DNA of 50,655 bases from a virus (IMGVR_UViG_3300037459_000262:1-50655), one strand, 5' to 3'; positions 25,688-50,655 are shown, counted from the stretch's first letter. Notes: generated by a model from the letters alone, not told the origin. Program-made: numbers and translations.

Positions 25688-27487
25688 TTGCCTGGTTCAT
25701 TTGAGAAAAAGCTAGAAGATATTGAAAAACAAGTATCACCACCTAAAACAAAATCACTAATCACACAACTACCAACTGATCATCTTGAATGGATTAAAAT
25801 TGCTCGCCCCTATGTAGGAAAGATAAAGCGAACCTTTGAGTGGGAACCATTTTGGATTGCTGTGTATAAAGACAAATCACCGAATATCGTTGTTGTTAAT
25901 GGTAGACAATCATTTAAATCAACTTTTGGTACGGATATCATCGGTTGCTATGCAACTAGTCATGCAAACTCTGAGGTCACATATATCGTAGATAGGGAAG
26001 ACCGTGTTTCTGCATGGTCTAAACAGAGATTCAGAAAAGATACAATGCTGCGAAATGAGTTGTTATCGCCATTTCTAATGCATGGTAGGGCAAATGTTGG
26101 AGAAATTAATCTTACAAACAATTCTGTAATTTATGTCAGAACTGATGAGAACGAATTCAATAACGTCCAGGGAATGACAAATAGTTTAATGGTTTTTGAT
26201 GAATGTCAGTACCAAGAGTTACAGTTTCGAGCTGCTGCATTATACTCAATGACAATGACCAAAGGACAGTGTTACTATTTAGGAATTGGTGGGGAAGCTG
26301 GTTCTGAATGGTACAAGTTGTGGAAAAAGTCAGACCAAAATGAATGGAAATTTGATGACAAATATTGGAGAGAGAAGCTAAAATTTGATGATGAAGGGTA
26401 TCTAGCAAACGAGCATCCAGAAAATATTGTTGCAGGAAAGTGGGTTGCAGCATATCCTGAGAATAAAGAATACCGAGGATATCACATGCCTCAAACAATC
26501 TTTGCAAGAATTCCACTAACAATACATGATGCAGTTAACCTATACAAAACAAGACCTGAAAATTCTATAGAGTTTCAAGAAAAATATAATCCCTCAAGTA
26601 TTGTGCAAGCTCACGTATATGGAAATTTCTTCAAGGCAATGCGAAGACCAATCACTCCTGAAATGGTTGAGGCGTGTTATGATTACAATCTTACACTGTT
26701 AACTCCAAAGCAAATAAAGGAACTAAAACAAATACATGAAAACGAGATTCTAATATTTTTAGGAATTGACTGGGGTTCGGGACCAGCTGCATCAAAAACT
26801 GTTGGCACTGTAATAATATACTGGAGAAAGACAAACCGTTACCAAATTGCATGGATTGATTCTAGACCACAAGAACATGAATATGATCAAGCAGCATACT
26901 TTGTTAAACTATACCATGAGTATTGTTGTGATTTTTGTGTAGCTGATTTGGGATATGGTAAAGACAAAGTTACACTAATGCAAAACGGTGGATACACATC
27001 ATTGGGTGAAAAAGTTGTAGGGTTAGGACGGGGACGAGTCAAAGGATGCTGGACATCAGGAAATATTACAACTGAAACAATGAGACATAAAAATCAGGAT
27101 ATAATAGATTCGCCAACTGTAGGTGAGAAAAAAGAACACTATTCAGTTGATAAGACTCAGGTGATTCAGAACTTTATTGATTTTGTTGGCAGTAAGGTTC
27201 CAGATGAGAAAGGCAAACAAGTATCACAGTTAATAATTCCATTCAAAAATGACTGGGAGTGTGACTTTTTAGTTAATGATTTTTGTGATATTACCAGAAA
27301 AGACCTAGACAAAACTAACATGGAGATTAGTAAAGATGACCCAAGACAGAAAGCCAAAAAAGAATACAATCACCCAAAGGATACAGTTATGGCAATTATT
27401 TATTGTATAATTGGTAAAACAAAGTATGATCCAGAAGGATTCCAAATATCTAAAATTAGAGCTAACAGACGATTCAGATATAATTAG
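25688..27487 (+). CDS. terL: Terminase large subunit
   Basis: Walker A-like NGRQSFKST, Walker B LMVFDECQ, C-terminal RNase H-like nuclease FLGIDWG...VADLGYG...HPKD. Confidence 0.85.
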   Translation: MPGSFEKKLEDIEKQVSPPKTKSLITQLPTDHLEWIKIARPYVGKIKRTFEWEPFWIAVYKDKSPNIVVVNGRQSFKSTFGTDIIGCYATSHANSEVTYIVDREDRVSAWSKQRFRKDTMLRNELLSPFLMHGRANVGEINLTNNSVIYVRTDENEFNNVQGMTNSLMVFDECQYQELQFRAAALYSMTMTKGQCYYLGIGGEAGSEWYKLWKKSDQNEWKFDDKYWREKLKFDDEGYLANEHPENIVAGKWVAAYPENKEYRGYHMPQTIFARIPLTIHDAVNLYKTRPENSIEFQEKYNPSSIVQAHVYGNFFKAMRRPITPEMVEACYDYNLTLLTPKQIKELKQIHENEILIFLGIDWGSGPAASKTVGTVIIYWRKTNRYQIAWIDSRPQEHEYDQAAYFVKLYHEYCCDFCVADLGYGKDKVTLMQNGGYTSLGEKVVGLGRGRVKGCWTSGNITTETMRHKNQDIIDSPTVGEKKEHYSVDKTQVIQNFIDFVGSKVPDEKGKQVSQLIIPFKNDWECDFLVNDFCDITRKDLDKTNMEISKDDPRQKAKKEYNHPKDTVMAIIYCIIGKTKYDPEGFQISKIRANRRFRYN

Positions 27488-27545: not shown

Positions 27546-28421
27546 TTGCTTAATGTGAGTGAGCAAAAAAGTGTCAGTGTCTACATGCCACCCGAAGCAA
27601 AAATTACAAACCTAAAAAATTTTGATTTAACAAAAATTGAGGAAACATTCCAGTACGCAAGTTTTGAGAGAAGAATATCCAAACACAAAGTTCACACGAT
27701 AGCTCAAGCCATGATGGATAACAAATTTACTGATAATGTCTTACGAGTAGTTACTAGTAACAGTTCTGCAAAGTTTGAGGTACTAGACGGACAACACAGA
27801 ATTGAGGGATTGAGATATGCAAGAGATGAGTTTGGACTGCAAACTTATGATCTTATCATATTTTGTTATCTTGGAGGGAACAGACGAGAAATATATCGTA
27901 GACTTAACTTGGGTAAACCACTCACACTAGCTGATCATCTAAAAGGAATTGATGATGGCAAAAATAATTTCTTTAATTCTCTAAGAGGCGAATGTGACCA
28001 TTATCGAACAGCAGATAAAATGGCATACCAAAATGTAATTAACTGTCTGCATTATGCAAAATCAACATCAATTAGAGCAATAAGACCACTAGCCATTGAT
28101 GACTTTATCTCAGCTACCACACCTCAAGACATTGCAACAGTAAAAAGATTCATTCCAATTTTAAAACAAGTTGCAACAAATCCTGATTCATTATTTTATC
28201 ACTATACTTTATTGAGAAATTACTTTCGTATCTTTTATGAAAATAAATTATCAGTTGATGATATGGTAAAACTTGGTGATGTCTTAAAGAGAGCACCAAA
28301 AATTAGAGAACTAGCTGAAAAACGAGATACTTTTGCAATGAGGGGGATTTATCACTATATCATAGATATTGCAGCACCAAAAGCAAATCTGCAACTATCT
28401 AAAGGGGATGTGAGAAAATAG
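27546..28421 (+). CDS. ParB-like / DGQHR-domain protein
   Basis: FERRI...I...M...EVLDGQHRIEGL...RRLNLGKPL is the ParB/Srx-DndB-like signature. True start may be GTG 27555. Confidence 0.75.
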   Translation: MLNVSEQKSVSVYMPPEAKITNLKNFDLTKIEETFQYASFERRISKHKVHTIAQAMMDNKFTDNVLRVVTSNSSAKFEVLDGQHRIEGLRYARDEFGLQTYDLIIFCYLGGNRREIYRRLNLGKPLTLADHLKGIDDGKNNFFNSLRGECDHYRTADKMAYQNVINCLHYAKSTSIRAIRPLAIDDFISATTPQDIATVKRFIPILKQVATNPDSLFYHYTLLRNYFRIFYENKLSVDDMVKLGDVLKRAPKIRELAEKRDTFAMRGIYHYIIDIAAPKANLQLSKGDVRK

Positions 28422-29527
28422 CATCTAAAAGAAAGGCTGTTGTAAAAAAACCTAAACCAAAAAAACAGCCAAAGAAAAAACTAGCAAGCAGAAAAGTAGC
28501 ATCAAAGGCACTTGTAAAAAGAAAAACCAAGTCTTCTAGTCGTTCAAATGTAAAAAGCAACATAAAGAAACGAGCTGAAAAAGTACCTACAAAAAAAATA
28601 GCAAAACCAAAAAGAGAAACAAGTGGTGGTGGTGCAGGATCACTTACTCTTAGAATTAAAAAAGAACCAGTCCCAATTCCATTTCCTGATTCAGAAAAAA
28701 TACCGCACTATCTGCTAAGAAATTTAGTAGACATTTACTATGACTTTCAGGGACAACGAATACAGACTCAGCTTAGAATTGGAGCATCAGAGCGAGAAAA
28801 TACATTGAGCAAAGAAGAGTTGTCAATATTTGGAATTACAACAATTATGGAAAATGCCAAGAACTTTGAGTTAGATTTAGAAAAAATTATTAAAAAACAA
28901 TTACTAAACCATGCTCTATACACACAATACTTTGTAAAGATTCAGGGCATAGGACCATTACTCTCAGCTGGACTCATTGCATACATTGATGATATTGAAA
29001 AGTTCAAGCATGTATCATCACTTTGGCAGTACTCAGGATATGGGATGAACAGATATTGTCCAGAATGTAAAAAGCCAACATCTGTTGAAGTCAAATATTC
29101 AACAGGAAAGATTGCAAAGAAACTACATCCATTTGAGAACTGTCCTGAGTGTGGACATGCAACTAATCCCATCTTACAAAAGAGACAGTCAGGATACCAA
29201 TCAAATTGGAATGACAAACTCAAAGTTTTAGCTTGGAAGGCTGCAACATCATTTGTAAAACAATCAGCAACAAAATCAAAGTACAGAAAACTATATGATC
29301 AGATAAAAAAAGATGAGCGAAGAAAGCATCCAACAAAAAAGATAATCAAAGGCAAGACATTCTTTAATGATGGACACATTAATAATCGAGCCATGAGAAA
29401 GGTATCAAAAATATTTTTGGCTCATGTATGGCAGACTTGGCGAAGACAGCAGGGATTGGAAGTAACAGAGCCATATGCAAAACAACTTTTAGGTCACAGT
29501 GTAGTAGAAGCATTTACTGACAACTGA
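28418..29527 (+). CDS. Tas (TasA-like) Nop-domain RNA-guided protein with Lys-rich N-terminal tail and Zn-ribbon insert
   Basis: The frame of track ORF 28805..29527 is open back to 28403 and includes LRNLVDIYYDFQGQRI (coiled-coil start of Nop/IS110 proteins). Also KIQGIGPLLSAGLI...F...SSLWQYSG, YRKLYD..K, GHINNRAMRKVSKIFLAHVW..WR...PY. No RuvC (DEDD) or HNH motif seen. Start codon uncertain; ATA 28418 proposed. Confidence 0.8.
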   Translation: MASKRKAVVKKPKPKKQPKKKLASRKVASKALVKRKTKSSSRSNVKSNIKKRAEKVPTKKIAKPKRETSGGGAGSLTLRIKKEPVPIPFPDSEKIPHYLLRNLVDIYYDFQGQRIQTQLRIGASERENTLSKEELSIFGITTIMENAKNFELDLEKIIKKQLLNHALYTQYFVKIQGIGPLLSAGLIAYIDDIEKFKHVSSLWQYSGYGMNRYCPECKKPTSVEVKYSTGKIAKKLHPFENCPECGHATNPILQKRQSGYQSNWNDKLKVLAWKAATSFVKQSATKSKYRKLYDQIKKDERRKHPTKKIIKGKTFFNDGHINNRAMRKVSKIFLAHVWQTWRRQQGLEVTEPYAKQLLGHSVVEAFTDN

Positions 29528-29530
29528 GGT

Positions 29531-31180
29531 GATGTTAAAAGACTTTTGAAACTCAAGGATTAGTTACGAGACTATCATAATGTGTAAACCAAAGAGGGGA
29601 TTCGAGTTAGAAGAAATAATGAAACCGAGTGTATTGTTGCGAGTTCACATGTAGATTAGAAAACCAAGTAATAGATACAAGTCAACACACTTTTGATACC
29701 CAAATAGTGTATACGAGTCAGACTGCGATAGAAAACCAACAAGCATAAACGAGTCAGCACATTTTTGAAAACCATATAGGCCATACGAGTCAGGGGGCTT
29801 TTGAAAACCAAAAAATGGTTACGAGTTACACAAACCATGATACCCAAAAGAAAATTACGAGTCATTTAGTTTGTGAAATCCATCATATAGCTACGAGTCA
29901 GGAGTAATAATTAAAATCAATTAAGGTATACGAGTCAAGCAAATCCTGAAAAACCCATCTAAAGGTACGAGTCATTTTGTTGCTGAAACCCACACATGCA
30001 GTACGAGTCTAAGAAATATGAGACAATAAACGAATGAAAAGAAAACACCAAAACATTTCGAGTCATGTAATTTATGAAATCCAAACTATGCAAACGAGTT
30101 CACTATAGAATGCAAACCCAAAAGTGGTCTACGAGTCAACATACTTTTTGAAACCATATAGGCAAACGAGTCATTTAGTTAGTGAAATCCATCATATAGA
30201 TACGAGTTATAGTGGTTATGGAATCCAAACATTCCTTTCGAGTCACCTCTCATGTGAAATCCAGAAAAAGTATACGAGTCACGAAATGTGTGAATCCCAC
30301 AGTATGATTGCGAGTTATCATAGACCAGAAAACCAAAAAAGATGTACGAGTCTAATTCTTATTGAATACTATTCAATAGATACGAGTTACCATAACTTTG
30401 AAACCCATTGAAGAAGAATTGAAGAAGAACGAGATAGCGTGAATGTGAAATCCATGTAAGCACTTCGAGTCACTCTTGTCATGAAATCCAGATGATGCAA
30501 ACGAGTCAGGGAGGCATTTGAAACCAAAAAGGCGATACGAGTTATGAAATACTGAAATCCATGTTAAAGGTACGAGTCTTAGAGATTTTGAAAACCATAA
30601 GAAGAAAGCGAGACATTGAATGGTTGAAACCCACATGCAAGGTTCGAGACAAAAAAACCGAGAAAGCCAATAGACAAGATCGAGTCAGTGCACTTAAAGA
30701 AAACCATAATAAAATTACGAGTCACGAAATGTGTGAATCCCACAATATGATTGCGAGTCAATGTACTTATGAAACCTATACATGGATAGAAATGAGTCAA
30801 CTAAACCCTGAAATCCACATAGCTTGTACGAGTTAGAATCTGTTTGAATCCCACGAATCTCATGCGAGTCATCTTACCGATTGGAAACCAGTATTTAGAT
30901 ACGAGTCAAAGTAAGAGTAAAAAACAAGAACGTTTTACGAGTCAAAATACAATTGAAACCAAGAGAAAAGAAGCGAATCAAATATACCCTGAAATCCAAT
31001 GCACATGTATGAGTCACTGATGTAATGAAACCCACATAATGCAAACGAGTTCAAGTTGTCTATGAAAACTAGAAAATGCATACGAGTCCTTATTCATTTG
31101 AAACCAAGAAGATGAAAGCGAGTCAGCCATGTTTTGAAACTCATTAGTGTAATGCGAGTCAACGTACTCTTGGACCATCC
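29531..31180 (+). ncRNA. TIGR-like dual-repeat guide RNA array, ~45 units of 36 nt
   Basis: Alternating repeats TACGAGTCA and TGAAA(A/T/C)CCA separated by variable 9-nt spacers. Exact 36-nt period at 29712, 29748, 29784, 29820, 29856, 29892. Starts immediately after the Nop-protein stop codon. Confidence 0.9.
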
Positions 31181-31214
31181 ATACCACAAAACAGACACCA
31201 ATAATCTTCTTGAC

Positions 31215-31796
31215 TCAATACAATTCCTCCTGTTTTGAAATAGTTGCATTTGTAGAATCAAACAAAACAATACTGTTACAATCCCAAGTATTGAAAATAG
31301 TGTGAAAATGCAAATCAGATGAATCATCATAATAGATTCCATCACAGTTCTCAAGGGCTTTGCTCCATACTGAACGTGCAGTTACAATATTGCCTTTTTG
31401 TAATTGAGTAATTTGATATTGTGAAATATTCATTAAATCACTTAATGAGCAAGAAAAAGAATATTCTGGAAAAAGATTATGATGTTTTAGTTCAGGGATT
31501 AGAAACAAAAAAAGTTCATCAGCATCACTTACTGTAGATATTCTAATGAATGAAAGATTTGGTTTTAGATATACATCACATATTGTTGATCCTTCTACAT
31601 CTCTAAATTCATTCCCAGTACACCATTCCTCCCAGTCTCCATTAACTGATATCCAGAATCCAGGTGGTTTGTATAGTAATGCATCATCTCCCCTGTCTTG
31701 AATTTTAATGCCATTATTCATCATGCCATCATATCCCTCATGTGAGGTTACATGTGTAAGATTCTCAGTGATACACTGACTGTTAATGTAATTCAA
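31215..31796 (-). CDS. Hypothetical protein (193 aa)
   Basis: KPPGFWIS...WEEWC...DGIYY...FNTWDCNSIVLFD recalls a family of viral hypothetical proteins; function not assigned. Confidence 0.55.
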   Translation of the reverse strand: MNYINSQCITENLTHVTSHEGYDGMMNNGIKIQDRGDDALLYKPPGFWISVNGDWEEWCTGNEFRDVEGSTICDVYLKPNLSFIRISTVSDADELFLFLIPELKHHNLFPEYSFSCSLSDLMNISQYQITQLQKGNIVTARSVWSKALENCDGIYYDDSSDLHFHTIFNTWDCNSIVLFDSTNATISKQEELY

Positions 31797-32838: not shown

Positions 32839-33111
32839 TTATTTGGTTGGAACAAAACGCTTTGGAAGAGCTACTTTGATTATTCTAGAATTTTTACATT
32901 TTGCACAGGATATTCTAACAGTATTGATAGTTATTCTACCTACTCTGATATATCCAAATGCATTACAGATATCACACATTATTTCTTTAAGATGATTATT
33001 TTTTAAATAGATTTTAGCTTCCCATGTACGCTTGTTTTGTCTTGCAGCATTAGCTTTGTATCTTCTTTGCCACTCTTCATCAGGCAATCTTTTCATACAT
33101 TGAATACACAT
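32839..33111 (-). CDS. Zinc-finger protein (90 aa)
   Basis: CIQC, CDIC and CAKC pairs. Confidence 0.5.
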   Translation of the reverse strand: MCIQCMKRLPDEEWQRRYKANAARQNKRTWEAKIYLKNNHLKEIMCDICNAFGYIRVGRITINTVRISCAKCKNSRIIKVALPKRFVPTK

Positions 33112-33270
33112 TGGTTTGTTTTAAATTTAATTTGTATCATGATGACATTCAATAATTATTGTACCAACAAACACAGACAACATACCATGTTTCTCGTATA
33201 AAATTAGTGTAAATCTGGATAATGAAAACTTGATGATATGATTAATATGAAGTTCAATGGTAATTGAAAT

Positions 33271-33630
33271 ATGATTGATGTTTCAGAATCTGTGAATCAC
33301 CATGAAGATATTGTTTCAGAATCCGTATACCGTTATGATGATTTTATTTCACATTGTTCAAATGTCTTAGAAGCACTAGTCAATATTGCTAAGGAAGTAG
33401 ATCCTATGTTACTTAATAAATTAACTGAACAGGACCAGTATAAATTTAAAAACACATATGCAGAAGCCCTTCACAAGTTACAAACAACTTTACATGCAGT
33501 TATTATAAGAAAGAGAAAAAATGAACCATCACCTGAATGGTTTTTTCAAGGTCAGAGAAAAAAACTGAAAGAAATAGATGAAGAACTTGTTCCAATATTA
33601 CATGAACTAAAATTCCAGATTACAGATTAA
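33271..33630 (+). CDS. Hypothetical helical protein
   Basis: ATG-started 119-aa ORF. Confidence 0.5.
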   Translation: MIDVSESVNHHEDIVSESVYRYDDFISHCSNVLEALVNIAKEVDPMLLNKLTEQDQYKFKNTYAEALHKLQTTLHAVIIRKRKNEPSPEWFFQGQRKKLKEIDEELVPILHELKFQITD

Positions 33631-33893
33631 CTATTGATTTCATTATTTATCTCCTCTATCATTTCTATACAGTCAGGTTCAATTCCATATTTAAAAAAAG
33701 TGTAAAATGAAAAATATGTCAATTCATTATATCCGTGATCAAGATACCAAAAAGTTCCCCCTGAATAATCTAACACATATCCATCAGTCTCATCAGGAGG
33801 AAGTGAAGGAAAGGCAGCAGGAACTGCAACAAGCATTAATGGTGTAAATAGTAAACATGTAATTGTAATGCCGAAAACTTTGTTTAATCCCAC
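33627..33893 (-). CDS. Small membrane/secreted protein
   Basis: N-terminal hydrophobic stretch. Confidence 0.4.
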   Translation of the reverse strand: MGLNKVFGITITCLLFTPLMLVAVPAAFPSLPPDETDGYVLDYSGGTFWYLDHGYNELTYFSFYTFFKYGIEPDCIEMIEEINNEINS

Positions 33894-34043
33894 TAGTTTA
33901 ATTTAATTTTTGATTTGTTTTAAAGATTATGCTCAAGATTTACGTTTTCTGTTGCTTTTTCATCTCTAAATTCTTTAATATTAGATTCAATAATAATTGA
34001 ATCTCAAGTTATAATCCAATAACTTTTAAAATAAAAGTTTACA

Positions 34044-34301
34044 ATGCTACATAAAATATTCATGGTTTTTAATTGTAAAGAATGTGTCCAAGAGTATATG
34101 GACGGAAAATATGGCAGAAACAAATCAATGCAAGAGTTAGCAAGGATTGTAGTTGGCAGAACTAAAACAGGAATCCAAGTTTGGTGTGTAAGACATGACA
34201 AAAATATACTAGATACTGATTTGCCTGATGATCATTACATAATGAATATGCCATTAAAATGTGAAATATGTACTGGTCCTGATTGTGAACATGTAAGTTA
34301 A
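34044..34301 (+). CDS. Small Cys-rich protein (85 aa)
   Basis: CKEC...VGRTKTGIQVWCVRHD...CEIC. Confidence 0.55.
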   Translation: MLHKIFMVFNCKECVQEYMDGKYGRNKSMQELARIVVGRTKTGIQVWCVRHDKNILDTDLPDDHYIMNMPLKCEICTGPDCEHVS

Positions 34302-34355
34302 GAAGCGTGTTTGTATTATTTGGTGATCTTAATAAAATAGTAAGTGTGTTGAGAC

Positions 34356-35171
34356 TTATTTTTTTAATAAATAAAAAGATGAAGCTGCAGTCTCATCTTT
34401 GATCCTGGGTTTTTTCTTTTTGAAGAATCCTCCTTTTATGTTTGAAAAATTACCATTTTTGTATGTGCAATCAGATACATGTTCTATGAAATCCAGCAAC
34501 TCAAAATTATTTTCAAGGAGATCGTTTGATTTACACAATACTTCATAATTTTTATGATGTTTCAAATGATAATAAACAGTAAATGCCTCATCAGTGATTG
34601 TAGGATATTTCATGAATTCACCTAAAGTATACCAACCTTTTTCACACCCTTCTTGAAGAACATCTGGTTCTTGAAAATCATGAATGTGGATTAATGTGTT
34701 GGAGTTCAAATTATCCAATATATCGTAACAAAAGAAGGTGGCAAAATAGGCTTCATGAGGTCCATCAATAAATACAAAATCTAATTTTTTTAGATCAATG
34801 GGATTTTGATAGTATGAATCCATGAAATCTCCTCCATGAAATACATACTCTACATTTTCAGGAATTTTAAAATCTTCACTTGTACGTTCTAATGCAAAAC
34901 ATGTTAATTTTGAACTTTCGTTATTTTTTGCAAGTGCTTGGAATATTATTTTTGTTGAAGTACCCCCTCCAATCTCAAGAATGTTTTTTGGTTTGTATTC
35001 TCGGATATAACAATAAAGAAGAACAGAATCCATGGTGCCAAAATAACCTGAATGAATTACATTATCATTTATTTCTGAATAGTATTTTTTTAATAGCGAA
35101 ACAACATTTTCTTTATCATATTTCATTTGATTTAACCAATCAAGACTTTTTCCATAATTCCAATTACCCAT
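34356..35171 (-). CDS. Class I SAM-dependent methyltransferase (Methyltransf_24-like)
   Basis: KPKNILEIGGGTST, DFVFIDGPH, IHIHD. Confidence 0.8.
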   Translation of the reverse strand: MGNWNYGKSLDWLNQMKYDKENVVSLLKKYYSEINDNVIHSGYFGTMDSVLLYCYIREYKPKNILEIGGGTSTKIIFQALAKNNESSKLTCFALERTSEDFKIPENVEYVFHGGDFMDSYYQNPIDLKKLDFVFIDGPHEAYFATFFCYDILDNLNSNTLIHIHDFQEPDVLQEGCEKGWYTLGEFMKYPTITDEAFTVYYHLKHHKNYEVLCKSNDLLENNFELLDFIEHVSDCTYKNGNFSNIKGGFFKKKKPRIKDETAASSFYLLKK

Positions 35172-35390
35172 AAAATTATGAAATTTCTCTGGTATAATTA
35201 CTGTTTAGTTGATTTTGAGGTGAAGACCTTGAAAAAAAATGGATGGAGAGTTCATTTCCTGGATTAATTGGATCATCACACTTCATAACTTGCATTCTTG
35301 CAAAAACTGCATTAGCCATCAAACGTGGTTTAATACGATATTGTTAATATATTACCATAATTATTTTCTTGTTGTATAACGTCAGAATCA

Positions 35391-35636
35391 TCATGAGCAT
35401 TCTCCTCTGAAATATTCCCATTCATCACACACTGCACCATTTGCAAGTTTGCACATTCCTCTCTGTTCTATCATCTCAATAGTACCGCCATTTTCAAAAC
35501 AAAAAACAGTTGCAGGATTTGCAATTTCTACTATATCTGATTGTAGATCATAATAAAATGCAATAGCAGTATAAATCAAAAATACCGCAAGTATTGTAAC
35601 TATTATTATTTTGGCATTTTGATTCAAGGAGGACAA
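35391..35636 (-). CDS. DUF333-like membrane-anchored protein
   Basis: Transmembrane helix, then IANPATVFC..NGG...GMCKL.NG.VCDEWEYFRGEC. Confidence 0.75.
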   Translation of the reverse strand: MSSLNQNAKIIIVTILAVFLIYTAIAFYYDLQSDIVEIANPATVFCFENGGTIEMIEQRGMCKLANGAVCDEWEYFRGECS

Positions 35637-35935
35637 TTAATTTTTGCAGATACTTGTCATTTAAAAAACTAGCTTTCATTATTTTTTATATAGCAATTTG
35701 ATCACCATTTAGAAAGTAATTCTATGTGTAACTTTTTGCTCTCTGATTTATTATCTTCTTTTTCTTGTAGAGAATTAATAGTTTCTTGGATTTCTATGGT
35801 TTTCTTATCACAATTATAACTTTTAGGTGGATTCACAATTAGGATATACAATCCAGTATAATTTAGTCTTTGCATATAGCCTAATGTTATCTCAAAATTG
35901 GTAAATAATTAAATTCAGAAGAATCATCAAATTTT

Positions 35936-36148
35936 ATGGATTCGGATTTCTCATACAGAATAAGAATAGGAGATATAACAAGTCCAAAGGATCTCATAGG
36001 GTTCAAGGACTTTACACTAGAGATAACATCAGATAAGCCAGAGACTGAGGTTTTTGACTTTGCAGAAAAAATTTTCCAAAAACGTGATGAATGGGCAATT
36101 AGAAGAGGCTTTGTATTTCTTGATCAAAAGAAAACTCAATTTAATTAA
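35936..36148 (+). CDS. Hypothetical protein (70 aa)
   Basis: ATG-started ORF in the accessory region. Confidence 0.45.
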   Translation: MDSDFSYRIRIGDITSPKDLIGFKDFTLEITSDKPETEVFDFAEKIFQKRDEWAIRRGFVFLDQKKTQFN

Positions 36149-36321
36149 GTCAAAGAAAATTTTTTTTCTTTATAAAATAATTATTCACAATTGGGTTTTA
36201 AAAAGTATGGTCGCCAAGTTCTTATGGTAATGGCTCATGGCCTCGCTTGTATCCATGCCATTTTCTGTACTCATAATCAGTTAGTGGTGTATCGCAACCA
36301 CATTTGCAGTTTGGTTTCATT

Positions 36322-36621
36322 TTAATCGGTTTCCCTCTTTTTATTAATTTGTATAAAGGTTATTTGTCTTAAATTTGTAAAACAATACTCGCATTTTATT
36401 TGATGTATTAATGCAGGATCTTTTATCTTTGGTATAGTTGAGTGCAGGTATATTCTATTTTTCTCTATTTTCTTTTTGAGATATCCTTGTTTTATCATTC
36501 TGTTTCTGGTTGTAGTGTATCGACTCTTGTTTACTCGAAGTTTACGATGTAATTCATTTGAAGACAACGAATGCCCTTGCAGATTATACAGTATGAGATA
36601 TTCCAATTTTTCATCTGTCAA
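36322..36621 (-). CDS. Winged helix-turn-helix protein
   Basis: LSSNELHRKLRVNKSRY.....RMIKQGYL is a wHTH pattern. Confidence 0.55.
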   Translation of the reverse strand: MTDEKLEYLILYNLQGHSLSSNELHRKLRVNKSRYTTTRNRMIKQGYLKKKIEKNRIYLHSTIPKIKDPALIHQIKCEYCFTNLRQITFIQINKKRETD

Positions 36622-36905
36622 CTTTCTTTATTACCCTTTGTTCTTCTGATTTGTCCTTTTCCACAATGAGGACAAAAAGCCCAATTTTCATAAATATGAT
36701 TTTTACAATTTTTACATTTAATCAAAGCTGGTAATACATTACCATCAGAAAATACAAATTCTTTCATTAATTAAAAAATAATTATACATTAAAAAAAGGT
36801 GATTCAATTATTATTGAATCCAAAAAAAGTATATGGTATCGTCAATCTTAAAAAGAACTTCAAGTATGTTTAATCATATCACTTAAAAAAATAAACTTTC
36901 CAAAC

Positions 36906-37079
36906 TTGGCACAAATAAAGCCGTATGAATTTGAAGGTCATCTCATCATAGCACTTGATTCCAAATGGCTTGAGTTATTAGATGATGAAGGAAAATTTCT
37001 AGTCAGCATAAAAAATAATCAATTAATACTAAGTGCAAAATTAAATTTCCACAAAATGCAATCCTATAAAAAAATTTAA
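36906..37079 (+). CDS. Possible AbrB-like small protein (57 aa)
   Basis: Not in the track. MAQIKPYEFEGHLIIALDSKWLELLDDEGKFLVSIKNNQLILS has a swapped-hairpin-like pattern. Start uncertain. Confidence 0.3.
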   Translation: MAQIKPYEFEGHLIIALDSKWLELLDDEGKFLVSIKNNQLILSAKLNFHKMQSYKKI

Positions 37080-37150
37080 ATTTTTAACTATATGGTACCA
37101 GAACGTAAACCAATTAAAAGAGAATACCTTAATTTTAAAAATAGATTATC

Positions 37151-37615
37151 TTATTTTGCAGGGATTGTCACTTCAAGAGCTACTGCATCAAAAACAGGTA
37201 AAGGGTTGTCTTCAAATATTTCATCACTTAATCCTAAAAGTTTACCATTAAATCTAACTGTATCTCCGTCCAATACACGCTTTCCTTCATAATTAAGTAT
37301 AATTGGTTTATCTGGAAGTATAAAATAATTTCCTATGGAGATTTTTAGTTCATATTTGTTATTACCAAGATTTGTTATCGAGTATATTTCGCCTTCATAT
37401 TGCATAACTTTGCCAATATGTTTTTCATTGTTTCTTATCAAATCATTATAATGGATTAATTCATTGCCTGTTAAATCATCATTAATGTTTTTTACTACTA
37501 TTGCTGTTTCTTCACGTTCAGTAGTTTTTGAATAATTACTTGCGCTTGCACCAAGAATTATGAACAATAGAAAAATTATACCTATTCCAATGCCTAACTT
37601 TGCAAGTTTTCTCAT
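37151..37615 (-). CDS. Membrane-anchored OB-fold-like protein
   Basis: N-terminal transmembrane helix; YNDLIRN.EKHIGK...GEI...RVLDGDTV.F.G. Confidence 0.6.
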   Translation of the reverse strand: MRKLAKLGIGIGIIFLLFIILGASASNYSKTTEREETAIVVKNINDDLTGNELIHYNDLIRNNEKHIGKVMQYEGEIYSITNLGNNKYELKISIGNYFILPDKPIILNYEGKRVLDGDTVRFNGKLLGLSDEIFEDNPLPVFDAVALEVTIPAK

Positions 37616-37792
37616 AAGAATTTAAGATGTTTTTATGTTGTTTATAAGAATTTATAATCACTAGTCATACCAGAACTGTTTGTAGTCATAATTTGGGGTA
37701 TCTAGTTGAATTTGATAATAAAGGCAATCCTTGTTTACAATGTAATCAATGTGAGAATATTAAGAAAGACTAGTCTGGTCCCAAAGTCAATT

Positions 37793-38119
37793 TCATTTTT
37801 TCATTTTCTTTACAATATTACAAGCACATTGATGGCATATCAAACTGTTAATTAGTCTGTAATATTTTTTTGATGGCATTGTAGCATAGATCAAACCGCT
37901 TTTTAACCTCACTTTTTTTCCTTTTTTGAGCAAACTAACACGACATATTGTACATGTAAGCCACACTTCATGACATTTATGATCTTTTGTAAATAACTGA
38001 TAACATTTTGGACATTGTTTTAGATCAGATTCATTTTTTTGGTGTGCATTACTATATTCATCAATTTTCTTTGGTTCTTTTATTTTGTCTTTAATCAATT
38101 CTTTAACCTTAGCAGTCAC
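37793..38119 (-). CDS. Zinc-finger protein (108 aa)
   Basis: CPKC..H.C, CTIC, CHQC. Confidence 0.5.
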   Translation of the reverse strand: MTAKVKELIKDKIKEPKKIDEYSNAHQKNESDLKQCPKCYQLFTKDHKCHEVWLTCTICRVSLLKKGKKVRLKSGLIYATMPSKKYYRLINSLICHQCACNIVKKMKK

Positions 38120-38352
38120 ACTTTTTAAAAATTATGAACTATAGTACCAGGGGTTAATTTAATTTTAATATTAAGTGGGGGTACCCTCAAAAAAAAATTC
38201 AATATTTTTTATTTAATACAAGGTACTGGGTAAAATGAATATGAAATGTCCAAGGTGTCAGAAATATGTTGCACCTTGTTACAAATCATGTTTATGTGGA
38301 TTTAAGGTACAATAGATATACAATAGCAATTTAGGTTTACATTCAATAATTA

Positions 38353-38601
38353 TTGTATCCAATCGTATCAATCAAGAGTATCAATTCAATGTATGCAAAA
38401 TTATATTTTCATGAGTCATGTAAGATGACAAATTATTTAGAAGATCATGTAAAAATGATGGCATTGCGAGCAACAGCAAAAAAATTTCCCAATGGATCTG
38501 TTGATTATATCCTAAAAGGACTAGATGAAGGATGGGTTGAGGCAATAGATGAATTAAGAGAAGAAATGAAATCAGAACAAAAGTTTGTAACTAAATTTTA
38601 A
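38353..38601 (+). CDS. Hypothetical protein (likely start ATG 38425)
   Basis: ORF track; the listed start overlaps a palindrome copy. Confidence 0.35.
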   Translation: MYPIVSIKSINSMYAKLYFHESCKMTNYLEDHVKMMALRATAKKFPNGSVDYILKGLDEGWVEAIDELREEMKSEQKFVTKF

Positions 38602-39234
38602 GGGTACCAGATTGATTTAATGTTAATGTAAAGGGTACCCTTAATTTTAAAATTCAAAAAATTTGGATTTACTTTTAGTTCATGTGAATGCAGGTAGTCA
38701 ATTTTTAATCCGTTTGTATAGTATTTGCCTCGTGCCTTTTTTTGTAAGTAGGCCTGACACGAGACAAACAACTAGGAGTTAAGCGTACAAATTATTAATT
38801 TAACTTGTTATTAAAAATTTAGTATGGTACCAGAACGTTAATGCAGTTAATGTAAAGGGAGGTAACCCAAATTTTAATCCGTTTCTTGAGAGGGGCGTAA
38901 GATGTACATTTGGGACTCCTTGCTTTATGACACTCCTTTTTTTAATGAATGGATGGGTATAGGTGAATAACTCAGAATTTAATTATTATAATTAATCAAG
39001 CTTAGGCATGATTAGGCGTGATCATGCCATGAATTATAGAAAATTCATGGAAAATCTAATTGCATACCCCTTAGGTTCAGATGACACTAAGGGTATGATT
39101 GGGGGTAGGGTGGCTATAAAATAATTTCATTCGCTCGATAGGTGTCATTATTAGACAATTTAACATAATCAAATAATGTCATTTTTAACATAAATGTCAT
39201 TAATAGTTAAATGATGACACACAATAATTAAAAC

Positions 39235-39417
39235 ATGAATCTAATTGATGCCATTACTGAATTAATTAACAATAAATCAAAAAAGGAAAATAATCTTACT
39301 AGCGAGTTATTATTAAATATCTATCAAAAGGCTTCACTATCAGAGAAGGAAATTATTAATAAAATGTTTTGGTGTTTAACTGATATTCAATTTGACACAA
39401 TTTTAAAAGAATTATAA
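39235..39417 (+). CDS. Hypothetical protein, resembles 48348..48566
   Basis: ATG start; shared ELI...Y..A....K..I...F.C....(F/L)DTI pattern. Confidence 0.5.
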   Translation: MNLIDAITELINNKSKKENNLTSELLLNIYQKASLSEKEIINKMFWCLTDIQFDTILKEL

Positions 39418-39518
39418 TTATTAGACATGGGTTTAAGAGAATTTCAAGAGTTATTTAAATAAGAAAAGATCAATAATGCGATAATATCTTATAGTATAAG
39501 ATAGTATAAGATAGTAAT

Positions 39519-39734
39519 ATGATAACACAACAAATATCAAGAAATGAATTTATCCGTAAATTCAATGAATTAGATGTTACAGCCAAAACAGCAATTTTAT
39601 TAAAAGCTGGTGTAACAATCGAAGAATCAAAACAAATAGACACAGACACAAACGCAGCCGAAATAGTCGAAAATTTCACAGATGGTACAGAGTTGATCCA
39701 CAACATATGGAATATAATGGAAGATGAAAATTAA
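39519..39734 (+). CDS. Hypothetical protein
   Basis: Preceded by an early-promoter-like sequence; TAATG-coupled to the next ORF. Confidence 0.5.
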   Translation: MITQQISRNEFIRKFNELDVTAKTAILLKAGVTIEESKQIDTDTNAAEIVENFTDGTELIHNIWNIMEDEN

Positions 39735-39949
39735 TGTCTCATCCTTGTAATGTTTGTAAAGTTGTTAATATTAGCTCAGAAAAAACTAAAATTCGTTGTG
39801 TTCAATGTAATGAAGACTTGAGCGAATGTGTAAAAATGACAAATATGAATTTAGAGCAATTCACAAAAAGACAATTAGAGAGAATAGAAATTTTAAAACT
39901 TTTACCAAACGAGATCCAAAGAATGCAAAAAAGAGAGGATGAAAGCTAA
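39734..39949 (+). CDS. Small zinc-finger protein
   Basis: CNVC...CVQC. Confidence 0.5.
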   Translation: MSHPCNVCKVVNISSEKTKIRCVQCNEDLSECVKMTNMNLEQFTKRQLERIEILKLLPNEIQRMQKREDES

Positions 39950-40097
39950 TGAATAAAGCACAAATCATTAAAAACAACAAAAAAGAGAGATCACAAGCTT
40001 ATCAAGATTATAAAAACGGTAAAATTGATCTTATAGCATATGCCCACATAGTAAATAATATCACATACTCTGAAGAAGCACAAGGGATCGAATACTA

Positions 40098-40253
40098 ATG
40101 GATAAAAAAGTAAAAATAACAACAACGATCACAGAAGCTAATTTTAAAACCATACGAACAAAAGCAGAAAAGATCGCCAAGGCTGCAAATGAACCAATTA
40201 ATTTATCGATGGCATTAAGAGCTATATTAAATGAGTATGAACGCATAAAATAA
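40098..40253 (+). CDS. Ribbon-helix-helix (CopG/Arc-like) DNA-binding protein (51 aa)
   Basis: Below the track cutoff: MDKKVKITTTITEANFKTIRTKAEKIAKAANEPINLSMALRAILNEYERIK. Beta strand, helix, then the S..LR.IL helix. Confidence 0.55.
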   Translation: MDKKVKITTTITEANFKTIRTKAEKIAKAANEPINLSMALRAILNEYERIK

Positions 40254-40299
40254 TAAATTTTTCAAAGCTCGTCTAATGGTCCATATAGATCACGCTAGG

Positions 40300-40830
40300 C
40301 CAAAAAAAAAATTTTTATTTATCGCTGAGTCAAAAAACAAAATTTTTCAAGCTCAATGAAGCTCAAAACAAAATTTTAGCTAGTCATAAAATCAAAAAAT
40401 GAATTTTTATCTACTCATACAAACCTAAAACAAAATTTTAGCTACTGTATGAGCTAAAAAACAAAATTTTAAGTTATCACAAAATCTCAAAACAAAATTT
40501 TTCAATCAGGCCAGGAGCTAATAACAAATTTTTATGATTAGGAACAACCACAAAACAAATTTTTTCAAACTCATAAAATCAAAAAATGAATTTTTACCTA
40601 CTGTATAAGATGAAAAACAAAATTTTTGATCCTTATAAAATCACGATTTTAATTTTTTACATATACACGCAGCATCAAAACAATTTTTTAAGAATACACG
40701 CAAGCTCAAAACAAAATTTTAGGTTTACATGCGAGCTCAAAAAAATTTTTCAAAAGCACTAAAAAATTTTCGTGGGTAGACAAAATTAGAAATCAAATTT
40801 TTTAAAGCACGTAAACGAAATTTTTAATTT
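40300..40830. repeat. Phased AAAACAAAATTTT array, ~31-bp period, ~15-18 copies
   Basis: A-to-T junctions at 40312, 40343, 40374, 40404, 40436, 40467, 40498, 40529, 40560, 40591, 40623, 40653, 40684, 40717, 40746. Non-coding. Confidence 0.85.
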
Positions 40831-41151
40831 TTTATTTTTACATGAAATTTAAGAGAATTTCAAGTTTTGTTTAAATATCAAATATCTAATAATGCGTAAC
40901 TGTTTTAAGTAAATATGATACATACTAATTAATGGAAAGTAAAAGACTTTTAGAAAAAACAAACATCAAAACCGATAAATTTTTTCAAAAAAACCTCAAG
41001 ATGTTAATAAATGGAGAGATCATAAAATGGTAAATCTCTCAAATAACATTACAGATTTAGAGTTTAACGACTCAATTTGTAATTGTTCAATAATCATCCA
41101 CAAAACAAATGAATGTCATGCTAACAGCTTGCAAGATATTTTAAATGGTCC

Positions 41152-44100
41152 ATGTATTATGGAGACAAAAAATTAAAAATGTCTCTTTTACTATTAGAAC
41201 CAGAAGACAAAGCTATAATTCATTGTGCTTTATGGCTAAATCAAAACGAATTTTTTAAAATAATGAATTTAGTTGAATTAAATCAGATTCATTATGAAAT
41301 AATTAACCAATTTACGGAGGCTTTAAGAAATTGAGCGTAATTTATCAAGACGATCCCCAGGCATTAGAAAAATTAGGTGTAAAACTTGAGAAATTAGAAA
41401 AAGAAAAAGCATATTGGAAAGGAATTAAAAAAAATAAGCCTCGAAAATATGATCAATCACCTGAAGATCAAAGATGGTATATGTTAACAAATGTCACAAC
41501 TAGAATAAGAGAAGTAAAAAAGAAAATAGAAATTATTGAAAACAGAGAAAAAAACGGTAAAGAATTAGTGAGAAATACAACTTTTAAAGATGGTCGTAGA
41601 TGTTTTTTCTTTACAGAAATAGATAAGGAGGCTAAAAACTAATGAGTCAAATTTTAAAGCCTATTGAAGATTCTTTATGGTATTCAAAAGATCCTTATAA
41701 TTTCAGGAAATTAAATCTAGAAATTGATAGAATAGAGACAGAAAAACAAATTGATCAATATTCTATTAATACAAGTATGGAAATAATAACAGATTCAGAA
41801 ATTGGGCATAATTCATTTAGAACTTTTTTTAAAGTCCATTATTCTATTTCTTGGAGTCATACAAAATATTTTGATATTAACAGAAAAACCAAGAAATATG
41901 AACATTATACAGAAAATAGATTATTTAATTTCGCATCTGTTAAAGTCTATTTTCAAAAGGAAAATAAATCTAAAATCAAGGCCCAAATTAAAAGAATTTT
42001 AGATAATGAAATTAAAGCAGACATGGTTTTTTATGAAAAACATCAAACTATAGAAAAACCAGCTTATTTTGATTATTCAGAAAAATCTGATATTTTAGAG
42101 AAAAAATTGGAGGCTTTAAACTAATGTCTCAAAAAATGAATTCACATATTGAGACTTTAAAAAATATTTTTGGGGATAAATCAAAAATTGAATTATTAAA
42201 TGATCCAAATTTTGTTACATCATATAAAATAACAACTAATGAAATTCATAGAGAAATTTTAACTGCATTGGGAATATTTACATTTTCAATTATGAGTTTA
42301 AGGCCCATTAGTAATAAAATTGAGATTATAGTTGAGATCAAGGAGGCTTTAAAATAATGTCACAAGATGGTATTTTTTCAAGTAGATGTTTTAACATGTC
42401 TGGATTAGAATTAGATGAAAAAGGAAAAATCAAAGATAAAGGTCAAATTTTTTATGGAGCTGATTTTGTTTTAAAAAATTCTGTTTTTGAATCTAATAAA
42501 GCAGGTGATTATATGTTAATCATTCAATCTGTGAGAAATGGAGAACAAACAAAAAATAAAATGCTCAAGGCCAAAACTGAAAGATCAGCAAGAATAGAAA
42601 TTAATAAAATAAATTCAATGTACAAACACCAAAAACCCCGTTTTATTAATCGTGATCAATATTTAGCAAAGCTGAAAGATCAAAAAGAAAAAGCAGGAGG
42701 TATTCACAATTGAATAAAAGAGAGATAAAAAAAGAGATCAAAAGACTCTCAAAGTTTATCATAATAGCTTCAATTGAAAATCCTTTGAATTTGGACCAGG
42801 AAAAACAAAAGCTTGCAGAATTGCAGGAGGAATTAAAAAAATGAGTAATCAAATTTTATCAACTAGTGATAAGGCGTGTAAAATTTTACAAAATACTCAA
42901 GATGGGGATAATTTAAGCCCTAATCATTTAAAATTATTAGAAAACGCCATTAATGGATTTTTAAATGAAAATGGGCTTAAAGTATTCAATGAATTATATG
43001 AAAAAATAATCAAAGATGGATATACTAAGCCGTGGTTTATGGGCCTTGAAAATTTTACACAAGATTTGGAAGGATATGTGTATTATAAAGGAGTACATAT
43101 TGAACATTATTCATTTAGTGATTATGATGAGGCATTAAAGGCTTTAAAGAAATTAGAAAAAAGATGTCTATATCTAGAATCAAAGGGAATTAAACCAGAT
43201 TCAATTAATGCTATATGGAAATGGAATAAGCAGGAGGCTGGATTTTAAAATGATCCATTATGATGTTAAATTCATTTTTGATAATGATAATTCTAAACAT
43301 TTATCATATTATGTTGAAGCCTCAGACATTATAGAAGCTGAAAAACTAGCTTTTAAAAAATTAGGCACAATGGGCCAAAATCATAAAACATCTTGTGAAA
43401 TTACGCCTATAGTTTTAAATTTCACAATAGGAAAACCAGATAAAAAATATAATAATTTTAAGGACCAATTAGCAGACGATCCCAAAATTATCGAATTAGC
43501 TGCAATGTATTTGAGAGGAGATCAAAAAATCAAAGATGAAATAAAAAACAAGCTAGAAAAAATGTTTGAATCATTAGGTAATGAATATCAAAAACAAGCT
43601 ATTACCACATTAAAAGCGGTGGTAGGCATTGCTGCAATTCATGACTATATGAAATACGGTAAAAAACCATACTTGATCGAATGGTTAAAGGAGATTAAAA
43701 ACTAATCATGACAGAAATTTGTTTTTATTTTAAATTAATTGAAAACACAGATTTTATTAAATGTAATTTATGCAATGATGAAATCGATTTAAACAAAAGT
43801 TTTGCATTACTTGAAACACACATGAAAGCAAAACATAAAGAAAAACAGTGGGATAAAGAACGCTTCATCATTGGAAATTCAGGAGCTAAAAACTAATGAT
43901 TAATCCAAATCAGCTAAAAATCGAGCTAGAAAAAGCAATTAAAAACAGAGAAGATAATGAATTGAATTTTAATTCTGAATTCCAAAAGGGGGAATTATCA
44001 GGATTTAAAGAGGTTCTAAGACGAATCAATCAATTTTTTAATGAATCAGAAAAATGTTCATTTTGTCAAAGTACCATTAATGTAATGCCTAAAACTGGAT

Positions 44101-44231
44101 CAGGTGTTGAATCTAATTGGGTTTGTTTAACTTGTGTAAATGAAAATAATATTGATGTTTTGCCTGAATATTTAGAAAATATTCAAAATTTTGGACATTG
44201 GCACAGACCACTAAGCGGAGATTTAATTTAA
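41152..44231 (+). other. Early-region operon of ~10 small hypothetical ORFs (41331, 41642, 42124, 42357, 42841, ~43250, 43708, 43896 etc.)
   Basis: Co-oriented, TAATG/ATGA-coupled, with GGAGG upstream of starts. No recognisable domains. Confidence 0.6.
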
Positions 44232-44423
44232 CATGAAAATAAAAATAAACCCTCATAAAAATAAGAGGCTGCATAACAAGGGAATGAAAAATTTAAAACA
44301 GCTTATTTTAAAATTTAACATTCCCTTGGAAATTATTTTTATAAATGGGCATATTATTTGAGCCTATTTTTTTTATTCTTATAGTGCGTAACACTTTAAT
44401 AAAAAACTGATACATAATAGAAT

Positions 44424-47243: not shown

Positions 47244-47472
47244 TGAGTTTAGAAATTATAGATGATAAAATAAAGGAGACTGTAGATTAATGAAAATTGA
47301 CAAATGCAGTGATCAAGCTGTCTATATTACAATGGATGGATGGATATTTTACATTGACAATTCAACAAACGAGCAAATTGTCAAGAAATGGAAAGTCTCT
47401 GATGATTCTGTTATAGATGTTAAGAATGTTTTTGAATGTAAATGGATGCCTCAATCCAAAAATTGAGGAATA

Positions 47473-47543
47473 TTTTTTATTCTTATAATGGGTAACATTT
47501 AAGTATAAATCTGATACTTAATAAATATGAAAACACAACAAAT
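47473..47543 (+). promoter_or_regulatory. Early promoter cassette (copy 1 of a near-identical pair)
   Basis: 71-nt match to 50201-50271 with 2 mismatches. Contains TTAAGTATAAA about 25 nt before the ATG. Diverged copies near 44367, 40888 and 39473. Confidence 0.75.
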
Positions 47544-50019: not shown

Positions 50020-50200
50020 ATCTATTTCATCTCAAATAACAAATGATGAGATGATAAGAATAATTGATTTAGCATTAAGAAGAGTTGTAGAAAATGGGGA
50101 ATCAGAATATAGTAAAGAAGAGCAAAAAATCTTTGATAAAATTAGAGAGATAAAAAAACAACATGCCAAAAAATATGGCAAATTTCTCTAATTTTTTTTC

Positions 50201-50271
50201 TTTTTTATTCTTATAATGGGTAACACTTAAGTATAAATATGATACTTAATAAATATGAAAACACAACAAAT
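50201..50271 (+). promoter_or_regulatory. Early promoter cassette (copy 2)
   Basis: TTTTTTATTCTTATAATGGGTAACACTTAAGTATAAATATGATACTTAATAAATATGAAAACACAACAAAT. Confidence 0.75.
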
Positions 50272-50655
50272 AATCGAAATAAACACGACTCAACAAATAT
50301 TTTTTTATAGTCTAGTTGGGAAGATGGAGAAATTAATCTAATGAAAGTCACGTTTAAGCTTGAACTTATTGGGCGTGGTAAAAACAAAGAAGAAGCTAAA
50401 AATGATGCAATAGAGCAATTAAGAAATACAATTCATGATAATGTCGAAATTACATCTTGGCTTGATGTTGTTAAAACTGAAAAGGATGAGGATGAAGAAT
50501 AATGAAAGTAAAATATTCAACAGTCTCAGTTGAAAAACAAAAATCACTAAACTTAGAGTCAGCACAAGATATCATTACACCACTTGATGATATAATAGAA
50601 GAAGATGGTTTAATCTCTGAAGTTTTAGAAAAAGAGGCACTAGATGAAATAATTT

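Follow-up and report, generated by a model that had tools for sequence, protein, structure and literature searches.

The complete viral genome IMGVR_UViG_3300037459_000262 (one linear IMG/VR virus record, CheckV 100%, whose 50,655 bp are referred to here as the window) very probably carries a dual-repeat TIGR-TasA system with a ParB-like partner, arranged as tasParB-tasA-array within a tailed virus of 50.7 kb. The genes run from the large terminase through the ParB-like gene and the Nop-domain gene tasA to the array, a grouping that an earlier note had picked out of the nucleotide sequence as a virus-borne RNA-guided system. That note also suggested that the architecture might be undescribed, which did not hold, as operons of tasParB and tasA with dual-repeat arrays already appear in the text of Faure et al. 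2025, where archaeal viruses are said to carry such loci (PMC12045711). The locus is a large, well-preserved further example of a published type and leaves knowledge of the type itself unchanged. The combination of a complete viral genome, an array of unusual length and a group of relatives nevertheless allows comparative statements, and three points are new to the present analysis: a conserved ATA-overlap junction between the two genes (7 of 13 junctions), a zinc-ribbon insertion in the Nop domain, and the sharing of guide units among related viruses.

The array, its Nop-domain protein and the predicted guide

The array lies where it had first been placed, directly after the stop codon of the Nop protein, and begins 37 nucleotides (nt) past it. 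The estimate of some 45 units with a period near 36 nt was likewise accurate: 45 edge repeats were counted, and 39 of the 44 spacings between them measure 35–37 nt (36 nt in 30 cases, 37 in seven and 35 in two, with single spacings of 27, 28, 38, 39 and 47). Edge repeats with the consensus TACGAGTCA were laid out from 29565 to 31161, the last, degenerate unit reaching 31188, and alternate with the loop repeat TGAAAHCCA and two variable segments of 9 nt. The 30 units of exactly 36 nt give the consensus TACGAGTCA-N9-TGAAAnCCA-N9, with a mean of 1.46 bits of information per position in the repeats and 0.21 bits in the spacers. The motif CGAG[TA] occurs 42 times on the + strand within 29500-31250, as against 23 times elsewhere on that strand and 15 times on the - strand of the whole window, and is followed by another copy 35–37 nt on in 34 instances, whereas 200 mononucleotide shuffles of the window averaged 0.17 such instances and never exceeded 2. 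All six frames are closed across the array by 23–38 stops each (longest open run, 104 codons); its translation as a conserved repeat protein was an outcome that the earlier note had named as a refutation. Tandem Repeats Finder detects just a 72-nt fragment, and standard repeat finders thus miss the array, as had been guessed.

Dual-repeat TIGR arrays are defined by two alternating repeats of 8–12 nt and spacers of ~9 nt adjoining a tas gene (PMC12045711). The present array, which adjoins tasA and has in each unit two repeats and two spacers, all of 9 nt, is a real guide-RNA array of this known layout. It departs from the CRISPR layout of a single 25–36-nt repeat, spacers of similar size and cas genes; the absence of cas genes had been claimed at the outset, and no Cas family was found among the 27 open reading frames (ORFs) scanned. 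Three pairs of near-duplicate units (units 9 and 18 at 29856-29891 and 30165-30200, units 21 and 33 at 30273-30308 and 30716-30751, and units 6 and 17 at 29748-29783 and 30130-30164) imply that units have been duplicated inside the array. The 11-nt duplication in unit 24 (Table 1) is strain-specific, being missing from a contig of run X2.

The Nop-domain protein is a nuclease-less TasA of the TIGR-Tas family. It passes the NCBIfam model NF052498 'TIGR-Tas system RNA-guided endonuclease' (E 9.3e-50; score 169.6 bits, cut-off 100) and matches phrog_4285 (E 3.3e-43) and, in a phmmer search of the PDB, TasR 9mty (E 7.7e-30) and TasH (E 1.1e-10), within a family of 2783 representatives at E<=1e-3. 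Pfam finds no HNH or RuvC domain in it, its first ~100 residues being Lys-rich, and the homology to 9mty begins past the RuvC part, at chain residue 120; the lack of either nuclease domain is the reason for naming the protein TasA. The N-terminal region differs in length and sequence among 12 aligned sequences. Residues 80-369 were modelled with AlphaFold2 (AF2) from an alignment of 40 sequences (predicted local distance difference test, pLDDT, 93.1; predicted template-modelling score, pTM, 0.87), and in Foldseek this model retrieves first 9mty, a structure of TasR with tigRNA and target DNA (E 1.5e-12; template-modelling score, TM, 0.60), followed by eight TasH chains and then by the bridge-RNA recombinase IS621 (E 2e-5). 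The initial description of the protein as Nop/IS110-like and of TasA type was thereby borne out by structure prediction of the kind proposed for it. Membership of IS110 itself is not indicated, with an NCBIfam IS110 score of 24.7 bits against a cut-off of 140 and a Pfam Transposase_20 match (E 5.8e-4, score 20.6 against 21.3) over 35 residues only.

Two features of TasA deserve particular attention. The zinc ribbon, of ~38 residues, is located where the phmmer alignment skips query residues 216 to 255 while the 9mty chain runs from 214 to 215; weak Pfam zinc-ribbon matches fall at 216-255, the model shows beta strands there, and all four cysteines are invariant in the 12 aligned sequences. The word 'zinc' is absent from the main text of the TIGR papers searched. 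Tyr353 and His360, which are likewise invariant among all 12 sequences, correspond in the alignment to SpTasH Y289 and H296, given in the text of PMC13421893 as the catalytic residues of pre-tigRNA maturation, and are therefore a candidate pre-tigRNA cutting pair. Some close TasA homologues (P0153, P0154 and P0093) contain an intein with LAGLIDADG/Hint matches, inserted between LWQY and (S/C)GYG of a conserved motif just ahead of the zinc ribbon, and the tasA of L009 (4001-5629), with 302 matched residues over 1629 nt, may hold one too.

The form of the guide can be predicted from TaTasR, for which spacer order and geometry were parsed from the synthetic tigRNA1 and target oligos. That tigRNA1 consists of a 5-nt 5' half-edge ending in CCA, the 9-nt spacer A, the loop UGAAACCCA, the 9-nt spacer B and a 4-nt 3' half-edge, UGCG, while the optimised target strand reads spacer B and then, directly, the reverse complement of spacer A (PMC12045711 Table S3). 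Because the repeats nearly equal those of this tested system, the mature guide is predicted to be the 36-nt RNA 5'-AGUCA-N9-UGAAAHCCA-N9-UACG-3', cut between G4 and A5 of the edge. According to the text of PMC12045711, TasA, TasR and TasH bind 36-nt RNAs cut mid-edge, the rule being that box D (UG) and box C (CCA) flank every spacer, with a loop rich in A and ends that pair, and the legend of figure 6G describes end pairing of one processed guide for TasR. Box D and box C, the A-rich loop and ends that can pair are all present in the units described here.

Covariation across 12 arrays supports the pairing of guide ends. Of 188 adjacent unit pairs, 180 allow a base pair between position 7 of an edge and position 2 of the edge after it, compared with 145 of 188 in a same-edge control. 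All 17 edges with A7 precede an edge with T2 (17 of 17; Fisher 1.7e-19), nine of the ten with C7 precede one with G2, and edge positions 6 and 3' are G-C in 182 pairs and A-T in four. The changes between neighbouring edges (UA-CGAG-UCA) are compensatory, namely A2-U7, G2-C7 and U2-A7, and in the loop (UG-AAAH-CCA) positions 2 and 7 are G/C in 201 of 214 cases. Related units share descent, and these counts consequently overstate the number of independent changes.

The covariation also bears on a different account of the repeats, in which they would form a centromere-like iteron block (sopC- or parS-like) bound by the ParB-like protein for partition, the Nop protein being incidental. Partition centromeres are often tandem repeats adjoining parB, and a ParB-fold gene does stand two genes upstream of the array. 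Half of each unit, however, is variable (the 0.21 bits per position given above), and Watson-Crick covariation between position 7 and the next position 2 is a signature of RNA pairing that would be meaningless for a DNA-binding site. The repeats moreover nearly equal the TaTasR tigRNA repeats, and the array tracks tasA while its placement relative to parB varies among relatives, all of which make an iteron block highly improbable.

Shared guide units and the start of tasA

A related TasA, with 64-85% identity over the best matching segment, is encoded in 13 IMG/VR loci; TasA of the window is 62-80% identical to the 11 relatives aligned. The same repeats were parsed in 11 of the 13 loci, while L014 holds two or more units in which the edge has diverged and L009 ends 5 nt past tasA. 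The array is mostly downstream of tasA; in L006 and L007 it precedes parB, and in L011 and L012 it lies 1-1.8 kb downstream. At the end of one 5.3-kb contig (L002:5249-5348) array units are repeated in inverted orientation, probably through an error of assembly.

Viruses with TasA proteins that differ by 20-38% still have guide units in common. There are 24 spacer-pair clusters present in two or more loci, and 93 cross-locus unit pairs differ at no more than 4 of 18 nt, where shuffling of the B partners leaves a mean of 8.55 such pairs and a maximum of 13; of 35 window units, 13 are related to a unit in another locus. The order of units differs between loci, and contigs from other sediment and marine runs join guide units in still other orders. 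The most widespread guide, found in eight loci, varies only at positions three apart within each spacer. Taken together, the guides give the impression of a repertoire that has been selected and shuffled.

The start of tasA is less conventional. The gene had been placed at 28418..29527, and this frame stands (open from 28403), with the correction that no ATG, GTG or TTG occurs between the stop at 28400-28402 and position 28805, which leaves the first 129 codons past the ATA without one. Homology to TasR already begins at about nt 28733, ahead of that first canonical start. The ATA at 28418, in the -1 frame, overlaps with the stop of parB (A-TAG), and the two genes share 4 nt. The same design is found in L002, L003, L004, L009, L012 and L013: in all seven junctions parB ends in AAATAG, with an in-frame ATA overlapping the TAG stop and tasA in the -1 frame. 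In the other six (L006, L007, L008, L010, L011 and L014) a TTG overlaps the last parB codons in the +1 frame, and L005, which is cut by a contig end, begins with the same TTG. Upstream of the ATA the window has AGGGG at -15..-11, and relatives carry AAAGGAGAT, AAAGGGGAT or AAAGGGGGT at the same distance; the operon genes of the virus have GGAGG ending at -11 before ATG.

The absence of a canonical start means that expression of tasA relies on an unproven ATA start or on a frameshift. AUA initiation coupled to parB termination is mildly favoured as the way in which tasA begins. A -1 slip at (A/G)-AAA-TAG, which would yield a ParB-TasA fusion, is possible though doubtful, and the remaining probability falls to some other explanation of the start-less junction. 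No in-frame ParB-TasA fusion was found among database proteins of 509-2000 amino acids (aa), which is weak evidence; only two relatives appeared in that search, both with inteins.

The junction could alternatively indicate a decaying remnant, with tasA left untranslated and the array drifting. The 129 codons without ATG, GTG or TTG would suit such decay, as would the several degenerate units of the array. What argues against decay is an intact frame of 369 codons whose catalytic and zinc residues are invariant at the level of identity to 11 relatives given above, the recurrence of the start-less junction with AAATAG and a Shine-Dalgarno-like motif in 7 of 13 cases, and the conservation of guide units far above the shuffled control. 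Furthermore, indels near the tasA start are in frame, as with an ATT insertion behind 28422 in one contig of another run. A remnant is very hard to reconcile with these observations.

The ParB-like partner, targets and possible function

The upstream gene had been called ParB-like, and its product does match phrog_1033 'ParB-like partition protein' (E 3.5e-4) and adopts a ParB/Srx fold in an AF2 model (pLDDT 79.2). Foldseek aligns this model with CTP-bound ParB (7bnr/6sdk), Noc, KorB and sulfiredoxin (prob 1.00), the alignments to ParB, Noc and KorB extending over 239-276 columns but with TM just 0.22-0.40. The protein carries a DGQHR motif (the NCBIfam DGQHR domain being weak and under its cut-off) at the place equivalent to the canonical ParB nucleotide-binding motif, which in CTP-dependent ParB proteins is of the GERRxR type and goes together with a helix-turn-helix that binds parS. 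The gene is directly upstream of tasA in 12 of the 13 related loci, the thirteenth being cut by a contig end, and the ParB/Srx fold, the 4-nt overlap and the retention of the pair are those of a TasParB-TasA operon. A complex prediction for TasA and TasParB scored 0.00 and weighs neither for nor against binding; PADLOC returned no match for either gene. The name 'TasParB' occurs in one paper of the literature searched, where the ParB-linked form is noted rather than studied, and its role there thus appears unstudied.

By homology to tested systems, the array would be transcribed with or after tasA, and a TasA dimer would bind every edge and loop repeat at its box D/box C nucleotides (U-R ... 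Y-C-A). Tyr353 and His360 may then cut each edge between G4 and A5 (UACG^AGUCA), freeing ~40 different 36-nt guides with paired ends (A2-U7, C3-G6). Each guide would bring TasA to an 18-bp DNA site composed of spacer B and the reverse complement of spacer A, with one spacer read on each strand. Since TasA has no nuclease, the expected outcome is binding, be it a block of transcription or replication or the marking of a site, and TasParB probably acts on or from the bound site. RNA-guided repression of transcription by TasA is reported in a preprint (10.64898/2026.09.09.750476).

Several points weigh against a working system of this kind. The tasA gene lacks a canonical start in the window and in six of the 12 relatives with a readable junction, a few array units are truncated or lengthened, and UA...UCA stands in the edge repeat in place of the UG...CCA of published arrays. 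The sequencing runs listed as carrying the locus include no RNA runs. A spacer-pair search of the kind proposed in the earlier note produced no convincing natural target, whether in the virus itself, among its relatives, in IMG/VR or in contigs of JGI metagenomes, under the TaTasR geometry or looser ones, and the aim suggested in that note, at host genes or competing mobile elements, therefore stays conjectural. The zinc-ribbon insertion could shift the target geometry relative to TaTasR.

Within the virus, the 40 window units have no self-target with 0-1 mismatch (both strand orders, gaps 0-3), the 39 hits at <=3 mismatches are spread across all geometries, and nothing clear emerged when the two spacers were allowed any orientation within 60 nt in the window. 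When 181 units were compared with the window and the 13 loci, 66 hits at <=2 mismatches fell over 16 geometries, two of them with one mismatch and none exact. A four-class comparison gave 64, 48, 43 and 36 hits, with the A..B class inflated by unmasked array units, and spacer B followed at gap 0 by the reverse complement of A (rcA) had four hits, without excess. Unit 11 matches the parB/tasA junction at 28397-28414 in the validated geometry (B 9/9, rcA 6/9); this was treated as chance because the count is at chance level and the related L002 unit misses its own junction at <=2 mismatches.

The most conserved guide, CGAAAYGTK / CARTAYGAT (eight loci), occurs as rcA-N0-4-B in 25 IMG/VR stretches, of which 12 belong to one near-identical lineage and the rest are scattered, and as B-N0-4-rcA in 11 scattered stretches. 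JGI metagenome contigs hold 19 stretches in the validated geometry, in ~15 unrelated contexts. Three homologous AT-rich contigs with rcA-N4-B in a small ORF were rejected, having no similarity to the window and no matches to other guides. A second guide, TTGAAYGGT/CATGCAAGG (window unit 30; four loci), is found as B-N0-4-rcA in 36 IMG/VR stretches (L057-L092; contigs G004-G007), with a gap of exactly 4 in 34 of them. These span at least six unrelated contexts, a helicase-like gene among them, and include a primase-polymerase-like family (24 contigs, 64-100% aa identity) with the site in a ...TCKDQPFKSYC... motif. The reversed-pattern control gave 10 stretches in ~3 contexts. A gap of 4 is at odds with the contiguous TaTasR geometry, and the GC fraction of the contigs is 0.40-0.59 against 0.33 in the virus.

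That no DNA target was found in these searches would also be expected if the guides of a TIGR-type array acted on RNA, through box C/D-like guidance of modification or through transcript binding. Nop-domain proteins do guide RNA modification in box C/D small ribonucleoproteins (sRNPs), according to the text of PMC12045711. The array carries box C/D-like motifs and, at 30357-30442, a match to Rfam SNORD62, a C/D-box small nucleolar RNA, although at 24.7 bits against a gathering threshold of 39 (E 0.16) this match is at chance level. No fibrillarin or L7Ae partner was found among the 25 larger ORFs scanned, and the closest characterised relatives, TasR, TasH and TasA, are all described as binding double-stranded DNA. 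Action on RNA is for these reasons improbable, and DNA binding by TasA is the preferred reading.

A more far-reaching proposal, unlikely when taken as a whole, is that TasA and TasParB constitute an RNA-programmed ParB system. Each of ~40 guides would set a TasA dimer on an 18-bp site, where TasA would recruit or load the ParB-fold nucleoside triphosphatase, and TasParB would spread or bridge DNA to silence or segregate it, each site serving as a programmable 'parS'. The guide set would then be a conserved, selected repertoire of a sediment archaeal virus lineage rather than an adaptive record of invaders, and the dosage of TasA would be set by the AUA start coupled to parB termination. The locus is a good specimen for testing what TasA and TasParB do, and its value lies in the conserved guide repertoire, the end-pairing covariation, the AUA-or-frameshift junction and the zinc ribbon.

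Viral setting and comparison with known systems

Table 1. Positions of the features of the tasParB-tasA-array locus, counted from the first nucleotide of the window
Feature	Position	Strand	Details
tasParB, ParB/Srx-fold protein, 291 aa	27546..28421	+	TTG 27546 (alternative GTG 27555); stop TAG 28419-28421
Shine-Dalgarno-like GGGG (GGAG in four relatives)	28404..28407	+	11-14 nt before the tasA ATA, within the end of parB
tasA, nuclease-less Tas protein, 369 codons	28418..29527	+	ATA 28418 to TGA 29525-29527; NCBIfam, PDB, Foldseek
Lys/Arg-rich low-complexity N-terminal region of TasA	28418..28700	+	Translation; no Pfam domain there
Four-cysteine zinc-ribbon insertion in Nop domain	29057..29152	+	C214, C217, C242 and C245, counted from ATA; missing in TasR 9mty
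Tyr353...His360 (EPYAKQLLGHS), candidate pre-tigRNA processing pair	29474..29497	+	Alignment with SpTasH Y289/H296
Partial first unit	29547..29564	+	Loop-like TGAAACTCA (29547-29555) plus 9 nt, between tasA stop and first edge repeat
Dual-repeat TIGR array	29565..31188	+	45 edge repeats; no more than 44 guide units, of which 39 measure 35-37 nt
Two truncated or degenerate units, 27 and 28 nt	30002..30056	+	Mid-array
11-nt tandem duplication, ATTGAAGAAGA x2.1	30407..30429	+	Tandem Repeats Finder; extends unit 24 to 47 nt

The locus had been assigned to a probable archaeal virus. Its viral origin is secure, given the complete IMG/VR record, a large terminase at 25688-27487 (phrog_675, E 7.7e-28; only ~25% identity to Bacillus phage terminases) and the head-morphogenesis and tail-fibre-like proteins recognised in profile scans of the larger ORFs; the virus is tailed. 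An archaeal host is plausible because the window has, at 47527-48348, a gene for a PCNA-type sliding clamp (Pfam PCNA_N/C). The clamp passes NCBIfam TIGR00590 (107.8 bits against a cut-off of 99.1), and its best PDB sequence matches are archaeal and eukaryotic clamps, so the host is probably an archaeon. In the GTDB genomes, no tasA relatives were confirmed among 64 candidate stretches and no PCNA relatives among 28. DNA of the virus recurs in sediment and marine metagenome runs from 11 studies, mostly at small word shares, and the contigs of four such runs were compared with the window. The G+C fraction is ~0.33-0.39 in the left 33 kb and 0.26-0.30 in the right 17 kb (33000-50655), the latter being an operon on the + strand whose small genes have strong GGAGG sites and which includes the PCNA gene. 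No tRNAs were found in the window, and a scan of it for bacterial-type promoters and terminators gave matches at shuffle level only.

The closest parallels are the published tasParB-tasA operons (PMC12045711), in which, as in the window, a parB-like gene precedes tasA with a dual-repeat array beside them in a viral context. Table S1 of that paper lists TasA proteins identical to those of L005 and L014, and arrays of this lineage may already be shown in its fig. S14, in its PDF supplement or in TIGRSafari. The published repeats are ~10 nt long, compared with 9 nt here, and the 45 units of the window contrast with the 5-15 that are most common (PMC12045711). The TIGRFinder totals of 65,635 guides in 4,126 dual-repeat arrays correspond to ~16 per array.

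TaTIGR-TasR, from Thermoproteota archaeon LB_CRA_1 (9mty), resembles the window in its 9-nt spacers and 36-nt guides, and its loop UGAAACCCA falls inside the loop consensus. Its edge (UGCG+AGCCA) differs from TACGAGTCA only at positions 2 and 7, the covarying pair, and its Nop domain is 31% identical to the window TasA by Foldseek. TasR, however, has an N-terminal RuvC nuclease and cuts DNA, in place of which the window TasA has a Lys-rich tail, and 9mty is without the inserted 38-residue zinc ribbon. FpTasA, MbTasA and PlTasA, like the window TasA, have no nuclease domain, and are described as binding guides and DNA and as repressing or activating transcription when programmed. MbTasA and PlTasA use stem-loop guides and have no Tyr/His loop, whereas the window TasA keeps the Tyr/His pair, and the text covered describes no ParB partner for any of the three. 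SpTasH of the Salicola phage CGphi29 is likewise phage-borne and shares the Nop domain and the Y289/H296 pair, but it carries an HNH nuclease and uses 8-nt spacers (16 nt in all) rather than the 9-nt spacers of the nuclease-less window system. More distantly, the IS110/IS621 recombinases and the archaeal Nop5 box C/D sRNPs have an RNA-binding fold in common with the window TasA, which is without the RuvC-like and Tnp catalytic domains of IS110/IS621.

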